Assembly: GCA_033763455.1 (NCBI GenBank)
Contig: JANRKO010000070.1
Span: forward strand, 1 to 64,000
DNA: 64,000 bases
Origin: Polyangiaceae bacterium
GTDB lineage: Bacteria; Myxococcota_A; Polyangia; Polyangiales; Polyangiaceae
Reading direction: 5' to 3'
Every line of letters begins with the position of its first letter. Position 1 is the stretch's first letter. The position numbers and the translations under genes were made by a program. Under the pieces are notes generated by a model, which saw only the letters and a list, made by a program, of their open reading frames with translations, had not been told where the DNA came from and did not search any database. Positions 11,786 to 22,602 of the stretch are shown here, piece after piece.

Positions 11786-12210
11786 TAGCGGGCACTTTTG
11801 TGTTTTTTTTGGCGCCTGGTTTTCCGTATCGGCTCAAGAACCGATTCCCAGGCCAACTCGGGGTGTTCGAGGGCACAAGCAATGCTCGGAATTTTAATGA
11901 AAAACAGAAGATAACCATTCGTCTTAATTGATTAATTCCTTGAACCCGTAGCGGGTGTTCAGGGCCAAAAACAGCACCGTCGAACGACCGCAAAAACCCC
12001 CTTGTCCATGCGGTTTCAGAGGAGCACTGGAGCCCCGGCAGCATCAAAGAAGCCCGATCGAGGGGGACCCACCGACTTTTCCCTCTTGAAAGCCTGAAAT
12101 AGCCCTGATATCGGTCGCGTGCCATGCAGTTGTTGCAGCAAATGCGCTGTAAGGGCTGTACCTGGCGGGATTCGGCGTCAAAATTTGGTCAATTTTCGGA
12201 GGAAATCGCA

Positions 12211-12522
12211 ATGGCTGGCAAGAGACTTACTAAAGCACAGGTAATCGGAGAGATCGCAAACACGGCAGACCTCGATAAGAAGAGCGTAAGCCGCGTTTTT
12301 GAAGGCCTTCAGGAACTCATCAAGAAGCAGCTCTCGCCTCGCGGCGCGGGTGAATTCGTGGTTCCAGGCTTGGTGAAGCTCCGCGTCGTCAAGAAGCCGG
12401 CGACGAAAGAGCGTCAGGGCATCAATCCTTTCACCAAGGAGCCCATCACCATCCCCGCAAAGCCCGCGAGCAAGAAGGTGCGCGCAACCGCACTCAAGGC
12501 TCTCAAGGACCTCGTTCAGTAA
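12211..12522 (+). CDS. HU family DNA-binding protein
   Basis: LTKAQVI...GINPFTKEPITIPAKP; GGAGG RBS before ATG 12211. Confidence 0.93.
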   Translation: MAGKRLTKAQVIGEIANTADLDKKSVSRVFEGLQELIKKQLSPRGAGEFVVPGLVKLRVVKKPATKERQGINPFTKEPITIPAKPASKKVRATALKALKDLVQ

Positions 12523-14815: not shown

Positions 14816-15003
14816 ACGGTCCCGCGAAAGCCCTGCGATGGCCGAGCTTTCGGCCACAATCGCCCAGGTTACCCGCAAAAAAGAAGTGCGGCGTGCGCCG
14901 GAGTGCCCGAGCGTCGGCAAAAATCAGCTCTGAGTACTGCCATGTTGGGAGAAAATGCTATGGGAGGGACCCTTCAATCGCCCACGTAACACTTGGGATC
15001 CTC

Positions 15004-16209
15004 ATGTCGAACAGTCAAGCAGCCTTAGTTCAATCGGCACAACAGCATCTCTACCCCAATTATCGGCAGCCCCCGCTCGTGTTTGTACGCGGTGACGGCG
15101 CTGAGCTCTGGGATGCCGAGGGTAGGCGCTATCTGGATCTTTTCGCTGGCATCGCGGTGAGCACCCTGGGGCACGCGCATCCACGTTTGGTGCGCGCGAT
15201 CTCCGAGCAGGCTGGCAAGCTTATCCACCTTTCAAACTACTACTACAACGAGCCCAACGTTCTTTTGGCGGCCAAGCTGTGCGCTCTTTCGGGGATGGAT
15301 CGCGCGTTCTTCTGCAATTCGGGTACCGAGGCCATCGAAGCGTGTTTGAAGCTTGTGCGGCACCACTTCTTTGGCAAAGGGGAAACTAACCGTTATCGGG
15401 TGATTGCCTTCGAGAATTCCTTCCACGGGCGCACACTCGGTGCCCTCGCGGCCACGGGTCAGAAGAAGTACCAAGAAGGCTTTGGCCCGTTGAGCGGCGT
15501 GACGCACGTGCCCTACGGAAACATTGAGCGCGTGCGCGAAGCCATGGGCGACGATGTCGCCGCAATCCTTTTGGAACCAATTCAAGGTGAAGGGGGCGTT
15601 CTTCCCGCCCCTACAGGTTTTCTACGCGCACTGCGCGACCTCACGACGCAGGCGGGCGCGCTCCTCATTATGGATGAAGTCCAGACTGGCGTCGGGCGTT
15701 CTGGGCGCTTTCTAGCTTGCGAACATGATGGCGTACGGCCCGATGTTGTGGCCCTTGCTAAAGCCCTAGGTGGAGGAGTGCCTATTGGAGCCATGTTGTG
15801 CACAAGCGCCCTTGAGGGTGCACTGCCACCCGGTACGCATGGTTCCACCTTTGGTGGCAATCCGCTGGCATCAGCGGCCGCGTTGGCCGTGCTCACAGCC
15901 ATCACCGAAGACAAGCTCATGGAACGCGCTCACGCTTCCGGTGAATTCTTAACTGCGCGCCTGAACGCCGTGGCGGCACGCCACCCGAAGAAGGTGGAGC
16001 AAGTGCGGGGTCGGGGGCTCCTCCAGGGCCTGGTGCTCCGGGAAGGGTACGAGGCGCGCCAGGTTCTCGGCCCATTGAAAGATGCAGGGGTGCTGCTCAC
16101 GGCAGCAGGCGATCGGGTGCTCCGCTTCACGCCTCCACTCACCATCAGCGAGTCCTTGCTGGACGAAGGCGTCAGCAAACTCGACCAAGTACTCGGGAGC
16201 CTAGCGTGA
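15004..16209 (+). CDS. argD: Acetylornithine aminotransferase
   Basis: FCNSGTEA, SFHGRT, EPIQGEGG, DEVQTG, AKALGGG, HGSTFGGNPLA; adjacent to argF. Confidence 0.93.
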   Translation: MSNSQAALVQSAQQHLYPNYRQPPLVFVRGDGAELWDAEGRRYLDLFAGIAVSTLGHAHPRLVRAISEQAGKLIHLSNYYYNEPNVLLAAKLCALSGMDRAFFCNSGTEAIEACLKLVRHHFFGKGETNRYRVIAFENSFHGRTLGALAATGQKKYQEGFGPLSGVTHVPYGNIERVREAMGDDVAAILLEPIQGEGGVLPAPTGFLRALRDLTTQAGALLIMDEVQTGVGRSGRFLACEHDGVRPDVVALAKALGGGVPIGAMLCTSALEGALPPGTHGSTFGGNPLASAAALAVLTAITEDKLMERAHASGEFLTARLNAVAARHPKKVEQVRGRGLLQGLVLREGYEARQVLGPLKDAGVLLTAAGDRVLRFTPPLTISESLLDEGVSKLDQVLGSLA

Positions 16210-17123
16210 CACGGCACCTACTCAATCTGAGCGACCTCGGCAAACCTGGGCTTTGCTCCCTCCTTGATGCAGCGGATCGCTGGCAAAAGGGGCGTGGCCA
16301 GCCCGACGAGCTCCAGCCTCTGCGCGGAAAGTCCGTCGCGTTGCTGTTCGAAAAGGCTTCCACCCGTACGCGCATGTCGCTAGAGGTCGCTGTGGCCGAG
16401 CTCGGCGGACACCCCGTGTTTGTGAGCAATCTTTCCTCGCAGCTTGGCCGCGGAGAACCCATAGCTGATACCGCTCGCGTGCTTTCACGCATGGTGCACG
16501 CTATTACCTTTCGCACCACTTCAGAATCACGGCTGCGCGAAATGGCGAACAATAGCAGCATCCCCGTGCTGAACGCGCTCACAGATGTGAGCCACCCCAT
16601 GCAGCTATTAGCTGATCTGCAAACGGTGCGGCGCGTTCACGGTACCCTTGAAGGCTTGAGTTACGCGTGGATTGGGGACGGCAACAACATGGCCAATTCA
16701 TGGATCGAGGCGGCGGGTTTGCTTGGCCTCAGGCTTCGCCTCGCCTGCCCCGAAGGGTACGATCCCGATCCAGCATGGCTCCGCCTAGCCAAAGAGCGGG
16801 GCGCGGATGTAGAGGTTGTTCGGGATCCAGCACGTGCGGTCCTTGGCGCACACGTTGTGAGCACTGATGTGTTCGCGAGCATGGGTCAAGAAGAAGAACA
16901 AGAACAACGGATACGCGCCTTTGCAGGAATGCGGCTCACCCAGAAGCTCGTAGATTTAGCGGATCCGAAGGTAATGGTGCTCCACTGCCTACCTGCGCAT
17001 CGCGGCGAAGAGATCGACGCGGAAGTGCTCGAAGGGCCAAGAAGCTTCGTTTGGGATCAGGCCGAGGCACGGCTACACACTTCGAAAGCGGCGCTGTTGT
17101 GGTCGCTCGGGGTGCATGCCTGA
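16206..17123 (+). CDS. argF: Ornithine carbamoyltransferase
   Basis: STRTR, HPMQ, GDGNN, SMG, HCLPAHRGEE. Confidence 0.96.
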   Translation: MTRHLLNLSDLGKPGLCSLLDAADRWQKGRGQPDELQPLRGKSVALLFEKASTRTRMSLEVAVAELGGHPVFVSNLSSQLGRGEPIADTARVLSRMVHAITFRTTSESRLREMANNSSIPVLNALTDVSHPMQLLADLQTVRRVHGTLEGLSYAWIGDGNNMANSWIEAAGLLGLRLRLACPEGYDPDPAWLRLAKERGADVEVVRDPARAVLGAHVVSTDVFASMGQEEEQEQRIRAFAGMRLTQKLVDLADPKVMVLHCLPAHRGEEIDAEVLEGPRSFVWDQAEARLHTSKAALLWSLGVHA

Positions 17124-19368
17124 AGCAACGGTGCTGGAGGGTCCCGGGCCGAAAGGGCCACAGGCCCTCGCAGTGGGTTGCTGGCAGTGCGACAGCCCAG
17201 TAGATCCGCTGCGCGCGGCACGTGTAGCGTACATCAGCGACAGGTTTCGTTACTTCTGTAGTGCCGAATGTGAGCTCAATTTTCGGGCACATGGGCGCCC
17301 TCATCTCAAGAAGCAACGCCGTTCAGCTCCTCCCCTGGAGCCTCGCAAGGGAGTTGCGGTCGCCACGGATTTCCCTGCCCGAAGTGATTTCGCCAACGAA
17401 GGCCCAGCTATCGAGGCTCATCTCGACGAAGCAAGTTACGAGGGCGACGATCCCCACGCGGCGGAACGCCGCAGTGTGCTGCCGGTTGTTCCCGAAGGCA
17501 CGGATGTCTCGAACCTGTTGCTTGCCCTCTCCGCACTCGGGGGCTGCCTGGCCATCATTCTGCTTTTGGCCGGGAAATCTGGATCGCTCGAAACGGCGCG
17601 GGTTCTTTTGGCCGTTGCTGGGTTGGGTGCGCTTGCCGCGCAGTATCTGTTAAGATCGCGTGATTTACTGGAGCCGCACCCGCTCGTCGCCCTGGGTGCC
17701 CCCACGGCTTCCGTTGTAACTGCCGTTGTTGCACGGCTCACGTTGCACCCTCTCACTGCTTCGGCACTGAACCTCGCTGGCACGATCCTAGTGGCCCAGG
17801 CGGCCTCCATTTGGCTGGCCGGCAGAGTACGCCGAAAGCTCAGCGCGCAGCGCAATCTGTTGGAAGCAAGCCTGAACGTTACATCCGAACGGGTTAACGG
17901 CGATGACCTCATCACGGTGCCAGCGCTTGAGCTTCGCCCCGGCGAAGAGATCTTGCTGCAAGCCGGCCAAACTTTGGCGGCTGACATTACGGTGGTTGCG
18001 GGTGAAGCCCAGGTGCTTCCTTGGTTGAACGCCAAACACGCGATTGCGTGCAAGAAGGGCGATACACTCGTTGCAGGGGCACGTGTGCTTGAGGGTCAGC
18101 TCCGTGCGGTCGTAGCCTGGGCTGGGGATGATCGCGCTTGGCTACGCCTCACTTCGGATCCGCGAAGGCGAGCTGATCTTCGCTCCGCAGTGCCACGTTT
18201 CGGGCGGCTCATCGGCGAACGGGGCGCCCCACTTGCTGCAGGCATAGCCGCCCTGCTTGCGTATGCTGCTACATCCGATGGCGTGGTCATCGGCTTGTAT
18301 GCCGCAGCGGCGTTCTCTGCCCTCTCGAATGTTGCAGCCGTGCAGATTGCGGCCCTATTCGTAGGGCGCGGCGTATTTTTGGCGCTTGATAGTGGAATTG
18401 CATTTCGAAACCCAGAGGCCTTCGATCGCGCTTCCAAGGTAACAGCTGCGGTTTTTTGCGCCCGTGGCACTCTGCTCATGGGAGAGCCCGAAGTGGCCAA
18501 CATCGAAGCCTTTGGAACCGCCCAGCCGGAACACGTGCTCGCGCTCGTTGCAGGCGCCCAATCCAGCTTCACCGATCCGATTGCACATGCTGTTTTGCGG
18601 GCCGCCAGGGCCCGCGGCATCCGACCCAACGCAGTCCGAGTGCCCATGCTAGCGCCCGGTCTTGGGGTCACGGCCGTAGCATCCGGAGGGGAGCCGCTGT
18701 GTGTTGGTAGCCGCGCGCTCATGTTGCGCGAACGCATCAGTATCGCGTTTGCGGAAAGCCGCATTTCGGACCTTGAGGCCATGGGCAGGAGCGTGCTTCT
18801 GGTGGCCCAGAGCCGGCATCTCATTGGGGCGGTTGGCCTGCAAGACGGCCTGCGCCCCGGTGCACGAGCCGCTGTCCAGCATCTGCTGGACGTGGGTGTC
18901 GAGCCAGTGCTGCTCTCCGCGGATTCACGTGATACCTGCGAAGCTCTGGGGCGAACACTGGACATTGAACACATTCGCCCCGAGTTGCTCCCCACCGACG
19001 CGAGCGAGGCCGTTCATCGCCTAGCCGACGGCGGGGCAACCGTGGCAGTTGTGGGTAACAGCCCTGTGGATGATGCTTGCTTGAGCGCAGGTGAGGTGTC
19101 GATTGCGCTTGGCTCGGCAGGTTCCGGTACGGGCGAATGGAGCGTTCAGCTTGCCTCGGACGACGTTCGCGACGCAGCGTTTGCCGTACGAATTGCGCAC
19201 CGGGCTCGCGAGCTGGCAACTCTGGGGATTATCACCTGTGCCGCCCCCGCAGCGCTTGTGGCCGTCGCGTCAACGCTCGGTTTGGTGCCGTTGGTGCTCG
19301 GGCCGCTCGTGGGCCTCACAGCTGTCAGCATTGCCCTCCTCCGCTTTCGCTCTTCCGGCTCCGGCTAG
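17116..19368 (+). CDS. P1B-type ATPase homologue, predicted catalytically inactive, with N-terminal YHS/TRASH domain
   Basis: Collinear TM/A/P/N domains, but FCARGTL replaces FDKTGTL and TGES, CPC, TGD, GDGxND are absent; N-terminal CWQC...YFCSAEC. Confidence 0.85.
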   Translation: MPEATVLEGPGPKGPQALAVGCWQCDSPVDPLRAARVAYISDRFRYFCSAECELNFRAHGRPHLKKQRRSAPPLEPRKGVAVATDFPARSDFANEGPAIEAHLDEASYEGDDPHAAERRSVLPVVPEGTDVSNLLLALSALGGCLAIILLLAGKSGSLETARVLLAVAGLGALAAQYLLRSRDLLEPHPLVALGAPTASVVTAVVARLTLHPLTASALNLAGTILVAQAASIWLAGRVRRKLSAQRNLLEASLNVTSERVNGDDLITVPALELRPGEEILLQAGQTLAADITVVAGEAQVLPWLNAKHAIACKKGDTLVAGARVLEGQLRAVVAWAGDDRAWLRLTSDPRRRADLRSAVPRFGRLIGERGAPLAAGIAALLAYAATSDGVVIGLYAAAAFSALSNVAAVQIAALFVGRGVFLALDSGIAFRNPEAFDRASKVTAAVFCARGTLLMGEPEVANIEAFGTAQPEHVLALVAGAQSSFTDPIAHAVLRAARARGIRPNAVRVPMLAPGLGVTAVASGGEPLCVGSRALMLRERISIAFAESRISDLEAMGRSVLLVAQSRHLIGAVGLQDGLRPGARAAVQHLLDVGVEPVLLSADSRDTCEALGRTLDIEHIRPELLPTDASEAVHRLADGGATVAVVGNSPVDDACLSAGEVSIALGSAGSGTGEWSVQLASDDVRDAAFAVRIAHRARELATLGIITCAAPAALVAVASTLGLVPLVLGPLVGLTAVSIALLRFRSSGSG

Positions 19369-19454: not shown

Positions 19455-19940
19455 GTGAAGCCAGGGGCAACTGTCGAAGCACCGAGCCGAGCCGAGGCGG
19501 AGCGCCTGAGGCGCGATCTCGACCAATACATGGCCGATCGGGGCCTCCGCTCCACCGAGCAACGGCGGGCCATTATCGACGCGTTCTTCGACTCCACCGA
19601 ACACATGTCGATCGACGATCTACTCGCGCGCGTTCGCTCCGAAGATCCGCGCGTCGGCTATGCCACCGTCTACCGCACGATGAAGATGCTCACCGAGAGC
19701 GGCGTGGCGCACGAGCACAAGTTTGGGGACGGCTTTACCCGTTACGAGCTGGGGGACGCCACCAACCACCATGACCACTTGATTTGCCTTTCATGCGGCA
19801 GCATCACAGAGTTCGAAGAGCCCCTGATCGAACAGCTCCAAGAGCGCGTTGCAGAGCGCTATCGCTTCCTAGTGCAAGAGCACAAGCACGAGCTCTATGG
19901 CGTTTGCGAAGCGTGCCAGAAAAAAACTCCGGCAACCTAA
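19455..19940 (+). CDS. fur: Fur family transcriptional regulator
   Basis: GLRSTEQR, ATVYRT, HHDHLICLSC, CEAC. Confidence 0.93.
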   Translation: MKPGATVEAPSRAEAERLRRDLDQYMADRGLRSTEQRRAIIDAFFDSTEHMSIDDLLARVRSEDPRVGYATVYRTMKMLTESGVAHEHKFGDGFTRYELGDATNHHDHLICLSCGSITEFEEPLIEQLQERVAERYRFLVQEHKHELYGVCEACQKKTPAT

Positions 19941-20603: not shown

Positions 20604-20760
20604 GGGGGTGCTCTTAGCACCCTCGGAGTGTTTGGGGAGAAGGAATGCGGAGGGGAGCTTTATGCAGTAATCATGCCCCGTAAGAAGTTTGACGCGTGCG
20701 CCGTCGGCGCGCAATGGTCTAGCTTTGTTAGGGCTCACCGACGCATAGTTGTCCGACACC

Positions 20761-21288
20761 ATGGCCATTGCCTACCGGCGCATCTACATCCTTGCAGGGC
20801 CGAACGGCGCGGGTAAGACTACGTTTGCGCGTGAATTTCTTGTGAGCGAAGGTGAATGTCCTGTGTTCATCAATGCAGACCTCATTGCCGAAGGTGTTTC
20901 ACCATTCGCTCCCGAACGTGCTGCCGTGCGGGCGGGGCGGATCATGCTGGACCTGATGGAGGAAAGTGTTCGCCGTGGTGAGAGCTTCGCGTTTGAAACA
21001 ACGCTGGCGAGCCGCGGCTACGCTAGGTCCATTGCCCAATGGCACACGGCTGGTTACAAAGTGGTTCTGCATTTTCTTTCGTTGCCTTCAGCAGATTTCG
21101 CGGTGGCACGAGTTGCGCAGCGCGTTCGCCAGGGAGGCCACAGTATTCCTGAGACCACAATTCGTAGGCGCTTCGCCGCTGGGCGGCACAACTTCGATCA
21201 CCTGTACAAGGATCTTGTGGATAGTTGGACATTGTACGACGGAGCCGGCGATCAACCGATTATTTTGGGGCATGGAGGCAACTCATGA
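20761..21288 (+). CDS. Zeta-toxin-like P-loop ATPase/kinase
   Basis: AGPNGAGKTT, INADLIA, FAFETTL, RVRQGGHSIP. Confidence 0.88.
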   Translation: MAIAYRRIYILAGPNGAGKTTFAREFLVSEGECPVFINADLIAEGVSPFAPERAAVRAGRIMLDLMEESVRRGESFAFETTLASRGYARSIAQWHTAGYKVVLHFLSLPSADFAVARVAQRVRQGGHSIPETTIRRRFAAGRHNFDHLYKDLVDSWTLYDGAGDQPIILGHGGNS

Positions 21289-21537: not shown

Positions 21538-22602
21538 TCAAAGCCGAGAAATCCAAGCTCCGAGCTCAGCTGCGCTCACTACCTTGCCCGAAACCACATA
21601 CGTAGGTGTTCCCTGAAAACCACGCATGAGCGCCTCGTCAGACTCACGTTCGGCACGCTCCAGCGTGCTCTTCCGTACCAGACAGCTGCGTAGCCGAGCA
21701 GGCTCTAACCCAATATCTCGGGCTGCTTCCGCTTCATCTACTCGCCCCTTCCCCGATGCGTGAGCAAACAGCCAGCGATCGGCTTGCCAGAATCTACCTT
21801 GCTCCTCAGCACAATAGGCTAACCTCAATGGCTGACAGAGATTGGCAGTCACACAACGTGTACGAGGAAACTGCCTGCGCACCACGCGCAGCTCGCGAGA
21901 ATGCCGCACCACTTGCTCCAACAGCCGGCTCGCGTGGATGCGGCACACCGGGCAACTGTAATCCGTGAATTCCTCCACCGTGAGCTTCGGCGCAGCGGCG
22001 CCATACCACGCGTGCCCCTCGAACGTTTTGCCGGTAGGAAGCAGCACCTCCGACTTCCAATTGTAGAGCTCGAAGTAGCGCGGAGCAAAAGCGTAGAACG
22101 CGATAACCACCCCTAGCGGGAGCGCAAAGAGGTACACCAATGTGTCCCTCGGATCTCGCGGCAACATCCACGCCGAACCGGCCCTCCACACCGCGACGCC
22201 CAAGCCGAGCGCCACGGCATGCACCGCCTCGCAGAGGAGGCACACCGAGCCCACCCAAAAGATCTCGATCCCCAAGAACGCCAACGACGCGAACACCGCC
22301 GCACCCGCAAGCCACCGTAACCACGCCGAACGCAACCAAGCGGCCACCAGGATCGAAAAGAAGCCGAGAGCGCCCAGCATTGGCACCGGCAGCCCAAGCA
22401 CCACCGAATAGGGGCTCAGCGCCACGCGCGTGCAATCCAACGTGGAATTCACGGAGCAAAAGCTAGCCGCATCAGGCCGCACATAAGCTCGAATGTGCAA
22501 CACCTCGAGCACCAGCGAGAAACCCAACCCAACCGTTGCTAAAACCAACGGTACTCGAAGCGGATGCGCACGGAACTCTGATAGCCAATCTTTCTCTGAC
22601 AT
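21538..22602 (-). CDS. VKOR-DsbA/thioredoxin fusion protein
   Basis: VKOR FC..C..V..SPYS and CLLC; DsbA-like DYSCPVC and GTPT. Confidence 0.9.
   Translation of the reverse strand: MSEKDWLSEFRAHPLRVPLVLATVGLGFSLVLEVLHIRAYVRPDAASFCSVNSTLDCTRVALSPYSVVLGLPVPMLGALGFFSILVAAWLRSAWLRWLAGAAVFASLAFLGIEIFWVGSVCLLCEAVHAVALGLGVAVWRAGSAWMLPRDPRDTLVYLFALPLGVVIAFYAFAPRYFELYNWKSEVLLPTGKTFEGHAWYGAAAPKLTVEEFTDYSCPVCRIHASRLLEQVVRHSRELRVVRRQFPRTRCVTANLCQPLRLAYCAEEQGRFWQADRWLFAHASGKGRVDEAEAARDIGLEPARLRSCLVRKSTLERAERESDEALMRGFQGTPTYVVSGKVVSAAELGAWISRL

Follow-up and report, generated by a model that had tools for sequence, protein, structure and literature searches.

P-type ATPases are defined by an aspartyl-phosphate, yet one whole bacterial lineage keeps a full-length, conserved copy that is unable to form it. 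What is such a protein kept for? The question is raised by a gene of a Polyangiaceae bacterium (assembly GCA_033763455.1, contig JANRKO010000070.1), of which positions 1 to 64,000 were analysed and are called the window here. The gene and its protein, both referred to as X, correspond to the open reading frame (ORF) at 17116–19368 on the plus strand, which encodes a catalytically dead P1B-ATPase homologue of 750 amino acids, as judged from the ORF, Pfam, TIGR01525, an AlphaFold2 (AF2) model and Foldseek. We consider it likely that X descends from a copper-type P1B-ATPase bearing a YHS/TRASH domain, is unable to pump, and has been selected as a membrane-anchored, non-catalytic protein.

A P1B-ATPase fold and its lost catalytic sites

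An earlier reading made from the DNA letters (the sequence-only reading) had described an unbroken 750-codon frame collinear with CopA/ZntA-type pumps. This description held: the ORF is intact and its product has the full P1B-ATPase fold. Two Pfam models pass on protein X, E1-E2_ATPase (37.7 bits, cut-off 28.1) and Hydrolase (HAD; 48 bits, cut-off 26.4), and the closest PDB sequence match in phmmer is Archaeoglobus fulgidus CopA (3j09, E 8.6e-27). An AF2 model, built from an alignment of 27 homologues, has a mean predicted local distance difference test score (pLDDT) of 79.6 and a predicted template modelling score of 0.71, with only residues 1–16, 61–127 and 669–673 unreliable. It contains eight membrane helices plus actuator (A), phosphorylation (P) and nucleotide-binding (N) domains. 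The comparison of a predicted structure with CopA, which the same reading had proposed, placed Legionella pneumophila CopA (4bbj, E 9.6e-33) at the top of the Foldseek matches in the PDB, with A. fulgidus CopA (7r0g) and ZntA (4umw) among the best. By homology and fold, with A, P, N and membrane domains all present, X belongs to the P-type ATPase superfamily.

Motif equivalences were taken from the phmmer alignment to 3j09 and from hmmalign against five canonical P1B paralogues of the same genome. FDKTGTL corresponds to F447-C-A-R-G-T-L453 in X, so that the phosphorylated Asp is absent. The former phosphorylation motif (F447-C-A-R-G-T452, 18454–18471) had been read as FCARGT, and its codon at 18457–18459 is indeed TGC, encoding Cys448 within A-V-F-C-A-R-G-T-L-L-M. 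TGES/SGEP, reported as missing at VLPWLNAK (residues 300–307), aligns to A306-K-H-A309; this column is not conserved within the X family, and the dephosphorylation loop is lacking. CPC, for which FSALSNVA had been read, aligns to S404-N-V406. Cys, Pro and His are all missing from the metal motif (CPC, SPC and the like) of membrane helix M4 in X, and the family has mostly Ala here; in the AF2 model a helix break nonetheless persists at residues 403–406, the point at which real pumps have the helix unwound by CPC. The replacements described for the P and N domains were likewise found: SEHP aligns to F485-T-D-P488, TGD to S601-A-D603, the Lys of LPxxK (LLPTDA in X) to A629, and GDGxND to G647-N-S-P-V-D652, in which the first Asp is replaced and the second kept. 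The P-domain set of TGD, Lys and GDGxND is thus incomplete, D603 and D652 being the acidic residues that remain. While every listed replacement was confirmed, the claim that all catalytic motifs are replaced goes a little too far: DKTGT retains its last Thr, TGD its Asp and GDGxND its second Asp, and G451, T452, D603 and D652 are kept amid the lost motifs. X lacks every catalytic feature by which functional P1B-type (heavy-metal) P-type ATPases are recognized, and its score under the curated heavy-metal model TIGR01525 (167.9 bits) is below the cut-off of 346.25. With the phosphorylatable Asp, the dephosphorylating TGES loop and the CPC-type metal site of M4 all missing, X cannot run the pump cycle.

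The domains of X follow one another as in a pump. The N-terminal TRASH/YHS-like domain with four cysteines (Cys4 domain; residues 17–60, 17164–17295) is supported by site tallies, hhalign and AF2, and precedes a variable disordered linker (residues 61–127, 17296–17496) with pLDDT below 50, the least conserved block of the family alignment. Membrane helices MA, MB, M1 and M2 occupy residues 129–253 (17500–17874; AF2 helices 129–152, 156–179, 189–208 and 214–253). The actuator-domain homologue without TGES (residues 254–357, 17875–18186) carries the family-specific P302-W303 and DRAW..RRRAD identified in the alignments, and is followed by M3 and M4, with S404-N-V406 in place of CPC (residues 358–425, 18187–18390; AF2 and hmmalign). 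The P- and N-domain homologue (residues 426–683, 18391–19164) is the most conserved part by substitution rates and motif alignments. M5 and M6 (residues 684–747, 19165–19356; AF2 helices 684–720 and 728–747) complete the protein. All of these features lie on the plus strand. The GC content across the region is even (0.58–0.63) and gives no sign of foreign DNA, which marks X as a native gene.

That an N-terminal YHS/TRASH domain is kept, as also read earlier, stands for the residues, CWQC (22–25) and YFCSAEC (46–52), but not for a domain call: Pfam YHS has no match at the N-terminus of X, and DUF7576 (16.2 bits) and TRASH_HVO_1752_C (14.4 bits) both remain below the threshold of 27 bits. DUF7576 matches 24 of 27 family members, all below threshold, with a best E of 6.7e-5. 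TRASH/YHS domains are spaced C-x2-C-x19-22-C-x3-C, and the cysteines of X (C22, C25, C48 and C52) conform to this as C-x2-C-x22-C-x3-C. The first three are Cys in all 102 loci covering them; the fourth is Cys in 99 and His in 3. In hhalign, the Cys4-domain profile matched the YHS domain of a pump from the same genome (L002), which itself passes the Pfam YHS cut-off, with a probability of 82% and an E of 1.1e-5. Modelled alone (47 residues, AF2), the domain reached a pLDDT of 91 and folded into two hairpins and a helix. L24e is the structural prototype of TRASH, and Rlp24/L24e folds were the best PDB matches (Z 5.8–5.2, values that are modest for so small a domain; top root-mean-square deviation 1.8 over 45 of 47 residues), ahead of the methane monooxygenase C-terminal region, the NosL copper chaperone, an FCS zinc finger and the ZMYM5 TRASH domain. 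Foldseek with the 47-residue model returned nothing at E ≤ 0.001, its ribosomal L24e/Rlp24 rows having E ≥ 0.07. We read the Cys4 domain as a TRASH-type variant of the YHS domain that was inherited from a copper-type pump. With TRASH/YHS/ribosomal L24e-type domains it shares the cysteine pattern and the predicted two-hairpin-plus-helix fold, and it differs from the YHS domains of the pumps in its own genome in having a fourth Cys (CxxC) where those pumps have P-V-C.

Set against the P1B-1 Cu-exporting ATPases with an N-terminal YHS domain (CopA/SilP; 4bbj/3rfu, 3j09/7r0g), X has the same fold, domain order and eight membrane helices. Its N-terminal domain is homologous to that of such pumps, L002 being the case in point, and its Atlas structural neighbours include YHS-bearing SilP clusters. 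Unlike them, X has no phosphorylatable Asp, TGES/SGEP, CPC, P-domain Lys or first Asp of GDGxND.

Conservation and distribution of the X family

Relatives of X were collected as 80 near loci and 30 loci from other genera or families (110 loci; 111 with the window). A homologue search for conservation of CARGT had been proposed in the sequence-only reading, and the relatives turned out to share the loss of Asp. In the family-profile alignment of the 111 loci the site is Cys in 81, Leu in 11, Ser in 10, Asn, Gly, Arg and Val in 2 each, Gln in 1 and Asp in none; the motif of the 80 near loci reads FCARGT (69), FSARGT (10) or FNARGT (1). When 1.84 billion cluster representatives were searched with the profile, the best 150 (50%-clusters) spanned 314–1097 bits and none carried DKTGT, with Cys (118), Ser (14), Ala (5) and rarer residues at the site and Asp in 0 of the 146 that could be aligned. 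Residues and motifs particular to the family are invariant or nearly so, among them R450 (109/111), G451 (111/111), P302-W303, DRAW..RRRAD, GLQDGLRPG and ETCEA.

A homologous-protein search gave 314 matches, more than 100 of them with ~50% identity over the full length and mostly from Polyangiaceae metagenome-assembled genomes; their source names are 'HAD family hydrolase', 'cation-translocating P-type ATPase' and 'Cu+-exporting ATPase'. Relatives are encoded in 218 GTDB species genomes. Among 301 sampled genomes of the phylum, profile matches at E ≤ 1e-60 were confined to the window's own order, where 21 of 23, 15 of 18, 1 of 2, 2 of 2 and 2 of 2 genomes of the respective families carry X; these counts are a floor, the first look in the search having been stricter. 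A class-level sample of 61 genomes added one further family with a clear member (G310, 350 bits), which has Pro at the Asp site, keeps the Cys4 motif and has no CPC. A 148-bit match in another family was rejected as a normal DKTGT/CPC pump. Distant members have Cys, Gly, Arg, Leu or Pro at the Asp site and keep the Cys4 motif, SGD and 'ER' (for the Lys); all those inspected have lost TGES and the membrane ion site. Family members in other genomes score at least 212 bits against the X profile, and canonical pumps of the window's own genome at most 159 bits. In a quick IQ-TREE analysis of 30 X sequences and 29 canonical P1B pumps (5 own-genome paralogues and 24 others), one long branch with a Shimodaira–Hasegawa-like approximate likelihood ratio (SH-aLRT) support of 100 split the X clade from the canonical pumps sampled, in a tree that is unrooted and whose groups were picked partly by the trait itself. 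A single loss of the Asp suffices for this split.

The ratio of nonsynonymous to synonymous substitution rates (dN/dS) was estimated by the Nei-Gojobori method in 15 close, non-overlapping pairs, drawn from 135 pairs of more than 70% identity among 81 sequences. It was 0.02–0.10 for the whole gene, 0.01–0.07 for the P/N domain (one pair being without this region) and 0.08–0.58 for the disordered linker, which was the top segment in most pairs. Between the window's X and its nearest relatives (75% identity) dS is saturated (2.0–2.7 or undefined), and the ratios of 0.07–0.10 obtained there are unreliable; the sister pair of the window's protein, L009/L010, has a dN/dS of 0.07. Neither the 42 genome matches nor the best match in each of the 110 loci contains an internal stop. 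The earlier suggestion of a selected pseudoenzyme, not a broken gene, is borne out by the family-wide loss, the low dN/dS and the uninterrupted frames. The pattern that had been named in advance as speaking against it, closest relatives with DKTGT and a dN/dS near 1, is not what the relatives show, for they have no Asp and ratios of 0.02–0.10. X thus combines the marks of a pseudoenzyme: homology to an enzyme, loss of the catalytic residues and purifying selection.

The N and P domains have changed differently across the family. A Glu, a His-Pro pair and the GxG glycines of the N domain are what we take to be the ATP/nucleotide ligands in A. fulgidus CopA. In the 111 loci, E482 is kept in 94, H487 in 82, the Pro in 98, and G515 and G517 in 110. 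The window's X has Q482 and D487-P488 and keeps G515-L-G517, so that its N-domain nucleotide site is incomplete. In the P domain, Arg (R629) replaces the Lys in 105 of the 111 loci, and GDGxND has its first Asp changed to Arg in 68 and to His in 14. The pattern of most members, with N-domain residues kept and Arg or His substituted in the pocket, would fit Mg-free binding of an anionic ligand. Q482, D487, A629 and N648 are common to the window's protein and its closest relatives, so that such binding may not extend to this copy, even with the low dN/dS of its sister pair.

Seven P-type ATPases of the same genome were examined, and all have DKTGT. Four pass the TIGR01525 cut-off and are canonical P1B pumps on contigs other than that of X. 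The best paralogue against the X profile is L002 (159 bits), a YHS-bearing pump of the SGEP type. A fifth P1B-like gene, L005 (G000:C19:160944-162593), has DKTGT, TGES and GDGTND, with IPT in M4, not a CPC-type motif, and scores 291.6 bits under TIGR01525, below the cut-off. L007 (G000:C2:46188-50036, its frame continuing beyond the locus) is a type II P-type ATPase with DKTGT, TGES, Cation_ATPase_C and an N-terminal extension of ~500 residues. Residues ~312–418 of L007 give a weak match to the membrane part at the C-terminus of P1B pumps (TIGR01525 443–559, 35.8 bits; X profile, 21.9 bits), and from this match the protein looks like a heavy-metal pump remnant fused before an active pump.

FUPA24-type fusions of P-type ATPases, as reportedly described by Chan et al. 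(2010), consist of an inactive type I module ahead of an active type II pump. These provide a loose precedent, both they and X keeping a heavy-metal-type ATPase module without function. X differs in being stand-alone and full-length, in having conserved motifs and a Cys4 domain of its own, and in not being fused to an active pump. The passages on P-type ATPases in PMC3924187 list FUPA families 27 and 32 in Myxococcus xanthus and do not mention dead pumps. We found no description of the X family in the literature, although TCDB may already classify it.

Arginine genes and a Fur-family gene beside X

The gene order in the window is S-adenosylmethionine methyltransferase, HAD-IIB hydrolase, argD, argF, X and a Fur-family regulator, followed on the opposite strand by 5-formyltetrahydrofolate cyclo-ligase. 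Upstream of X and on the same (plus) strand lie argD (acetylornithine aminotransferase, 14893–16209; TIGR00707, 478.7 bits, cut-off 410) and argF (ornithine carbamoyltransferase, 16206–17123; TIGR00658, 365 bits, cut-off 280.85). The argF stop overlaps the X start by 8 nucleotides (nt), and X is probably co-transcribed with argD/argF in this window. The Fur-family gene (19455–19940, plus strand; Pfam FUR, 121.9 bits) begins 86 nt 3' of X, and no terminator-like site was found in this gap. Its product is best matched by Fur models in NCBIfam and lies below every Fur, PerR and Zur equivalog cut-off. An H-H-D-H set and two CxxC pairs are invariant across 14 orthologues of this regulator. A complex prediction for X and the Fur-family protein from paired 14-row alignments scored 0.15 against a mark of 0.32, which bears neither way on binding.

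The arginine neighbours, which the sequence-only reading had not mentioned, recur throughout the family: an arginine-biosynthesis gene adjoins X in 100 of the 102 loci with room for one. In near loci with at least 1.3 kb upstream, argD and/or argF precede X on the same strand without exception (72/72, of the 80 near loci). Among the 30 loci of other genera or families, argD/argF lie upstream in 10, and in 18, all from other families, argH lies 5–532 nt 3' of X. Wherever an argH-bearing locus reaches far enough, a lysA-like decarboxylase gene follows argH; in G310, the member from a family outside the order, X is convergent to argH-lysA. These two arrangements of arginine neighbours indicate that the link to arginine genes spans the whole X family. 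The Fur-family gene lies within 1 kb downstream of X, on the same strand, in 58 of the 70 near loci with at least 0.8 kb downstream. Loci from the order's other families, with argH and the lysA-like gene after X, sometimes carry a YkuD-type L,D-transpeptidase gene upstream of it (L090:7563-9143, L095:7200-8768 and L091:8830-10569).

Two explanations of this neighbourhood were set aside. A single ancestral argD-argF-X-argH-lysA operon is not demonstrated, argH-lysA occurring without X or a nearby upstream arg gene in other families, and X does not stand in for argG between argF and argH, as the genome encodes both argG and argH at other sites. An ArgR C-terminal domain was not found in this genome, which is 93.7% complete; ArgR_C is absent from 6 of 14 control genomes as well.

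Candidate roles for X

A protein that cannot pump and is nevertheless held by strong selection points to a pseudoenzyme with a role based on binding, and X very probably acts in this way, not by catalysis. Its ancestor would have been a YHS/TRASH-bearing copper-type P1B-ATPase, and X would retain from it the pump architecture, namely the Cys4 N-terminal domain, the eight membrane helices and the A, P and N domains. We tentatively suggest that the Cys4 domain may bind metal (Zn or Cu) and form the functional core of X as a cytoplasmic sensor, regulator or scaffold. Sensor and scaffold had also been put forward in the sequence-only reading, together with a partner of a true pump. A tie between this role and the co-oriented arginine-biosynthesis genes is a more doubtful proposal. 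The arginine- and Fur-gene neighbourhoods are the best leads to partners of X.

Several observations weigh against a selected, non-catalytic X with these functional ties. Metal binding by the Cys4 domain is predicted from motif and fold, and Pfam YHS gives no match and DUF7576 only a sub-threshold one. The window's X carries A629 and N648 at positions that are Arg or His in the majority of the family, and with its Q482 and D487 a nucleotide-sensing role would not transfer to it. Arginine adjacency could be inherited gene order, as the loci are related and not independent; two of the 30 further loci (L092 and L114) have no arginine gene nearby, and in other families of the class argH-lysA occurs without X and without an arg gene within 1.5 kb upstream. 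Of the 70 near loci, 12 have no Fur gene in the first 1 kb downstream, and none of the loci from other families has one. As to expression, there is no RNA run bearing X among the sequencing runs listed; the DNA runs bearing it are sediment and soil metagenome contigs.

The neighbourhood could be read more directly, X being a sensor or regulator of the arginine pathway. In this case the P-domain pocket, free of Mg2+ ligands and, in most members, bearing Arg or His (R450, R629, R/H648), would be a binding site for an anionic ligand, for instance Mg-free ATP or a pathway intermediate that is phosphorylated or carboxylated, and would relay the signal to the co-transcribed arg genes. The 100 of 102 loci with an arginine gene next to X, the two arrangements, the occurrence of argH-lysA beside X outside the order, the substitutions in the pocket (Arg for Lys in 105 of 111; R68/H14 for the first Asp of GDGxND) and the apparent lack of an ArgR C-terminal domain in the genome all fit such a sensor. 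We nevertheless regard it as unlikely, since the pocket of the window's X, with A629 and N648, is not cationic, the adjacency may be inherited synteny, X has no DNA-binding or signalling output domain, and ArgR_C is likewise missing from six of the 14 control genomes. The downstream gene suggests another partner: X might tether or modulate the Fur-family regulator at the membrane, as some transport proteins do, such that metal status would control a Fur-type regulon. The same-strand Fur gene in 58 of 70 near loci, the gap without a terminator-like site and the Cys- or His-rich metal motifs of both proteins are in keeping with this idea. It is quite improbable in our judgement, however, as Fur is not adjacent in the 18 other-family loci with argH after X or in 12 of 70 near loci, and the adjacency is limited to one family in which the whole neighbourhood is syntenic.

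A third kind of partner would be a working P-type pump, of which X could be a non-catalytic partner, regulatory subunit or assembly factor. The genome has four canonical P1B pumps, X keeps the full membrane domain and a pump-like surface, and L007 carries a P1B-module remnant fused to an active type II pump; but no pump gene stands beside X in any of the 110 loci examined and the canonical pumps are on other contigs, which leaves this role with a small chance. Smaller still is the chance that X remains an enzyme or transporter with non-canonical chemistry, for example through a thiol-phosphate intermediate at Cys448. While the Asp site holds Cys in 81 of the 111 loci and in 118 of the 150 representatives, and G451, T452, the TGD Asp and D652 are kept, conserved members also have Leu, Ser, Asn, Gly, Arg, Val, Gln, Ala or Pro at the site, every one of them has lost TGES and the membrane ion site, and the window's X is also without the N-domain Glu and His. 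That X is a decaying pseudogene, still open by chance, would account for the lost catalytic motifs, but is scarcely credible given a dN/dS of 0.02–0.10, the absence of stops in 42 genome matches or 110 loci, the family-specific invariant motifs and the confident AF2 model.

Starting again from a selected, non-catalytic descendant of a copper-type pump, one can imagine the dead pump as a signalling device, although we think this improbable. The Cys4 domain would read cytoplasmic metal, and in most members the protein would also sense an adenine nucleotide, through the intact N domain and the Mg-free, Arg-lined former phosphorylation pocket; the large movements of the pump's domains would then control arginine biosynthesis and/or the neighbouring Fur-type regulon. 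If true, X would be the first bacterial P-type ATPase described to work as a sensor, not a transporter. The conserved copy that cannot form the aspartyl-phosphate implies that the fold has a second, unstudied use. Since databases label X proteins as Cu+/Zn2+ exporters or HAD hydrolases, counts of metal-resistance genes are inflated in myxobacterial genomes. The stable link to arginine genes and a Fur-family regulator offers concrete, testable leads.

Three other genes of the window are recorded here. A plus-strand ORF of 179 amino acids (20749–21288) encodes a Zeta-toxin/AAA_33-like P-loop kinase and overlaps the start of the opposite-strand 5-formyltetrahydrofolate cyclo-ligase. On the minus strand, 21538–22602 encodes a vitamin K epoxide reductase (VKOR) domain fused to a DsbA/thioredoxin domain (354 amino acids). 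At 12124–12522 (plus strand) lies the gene for an HU-type DNA-binding protein with an N-terminal extension of ~34 residues, which is 99% identical in the loci of the closest relatives.

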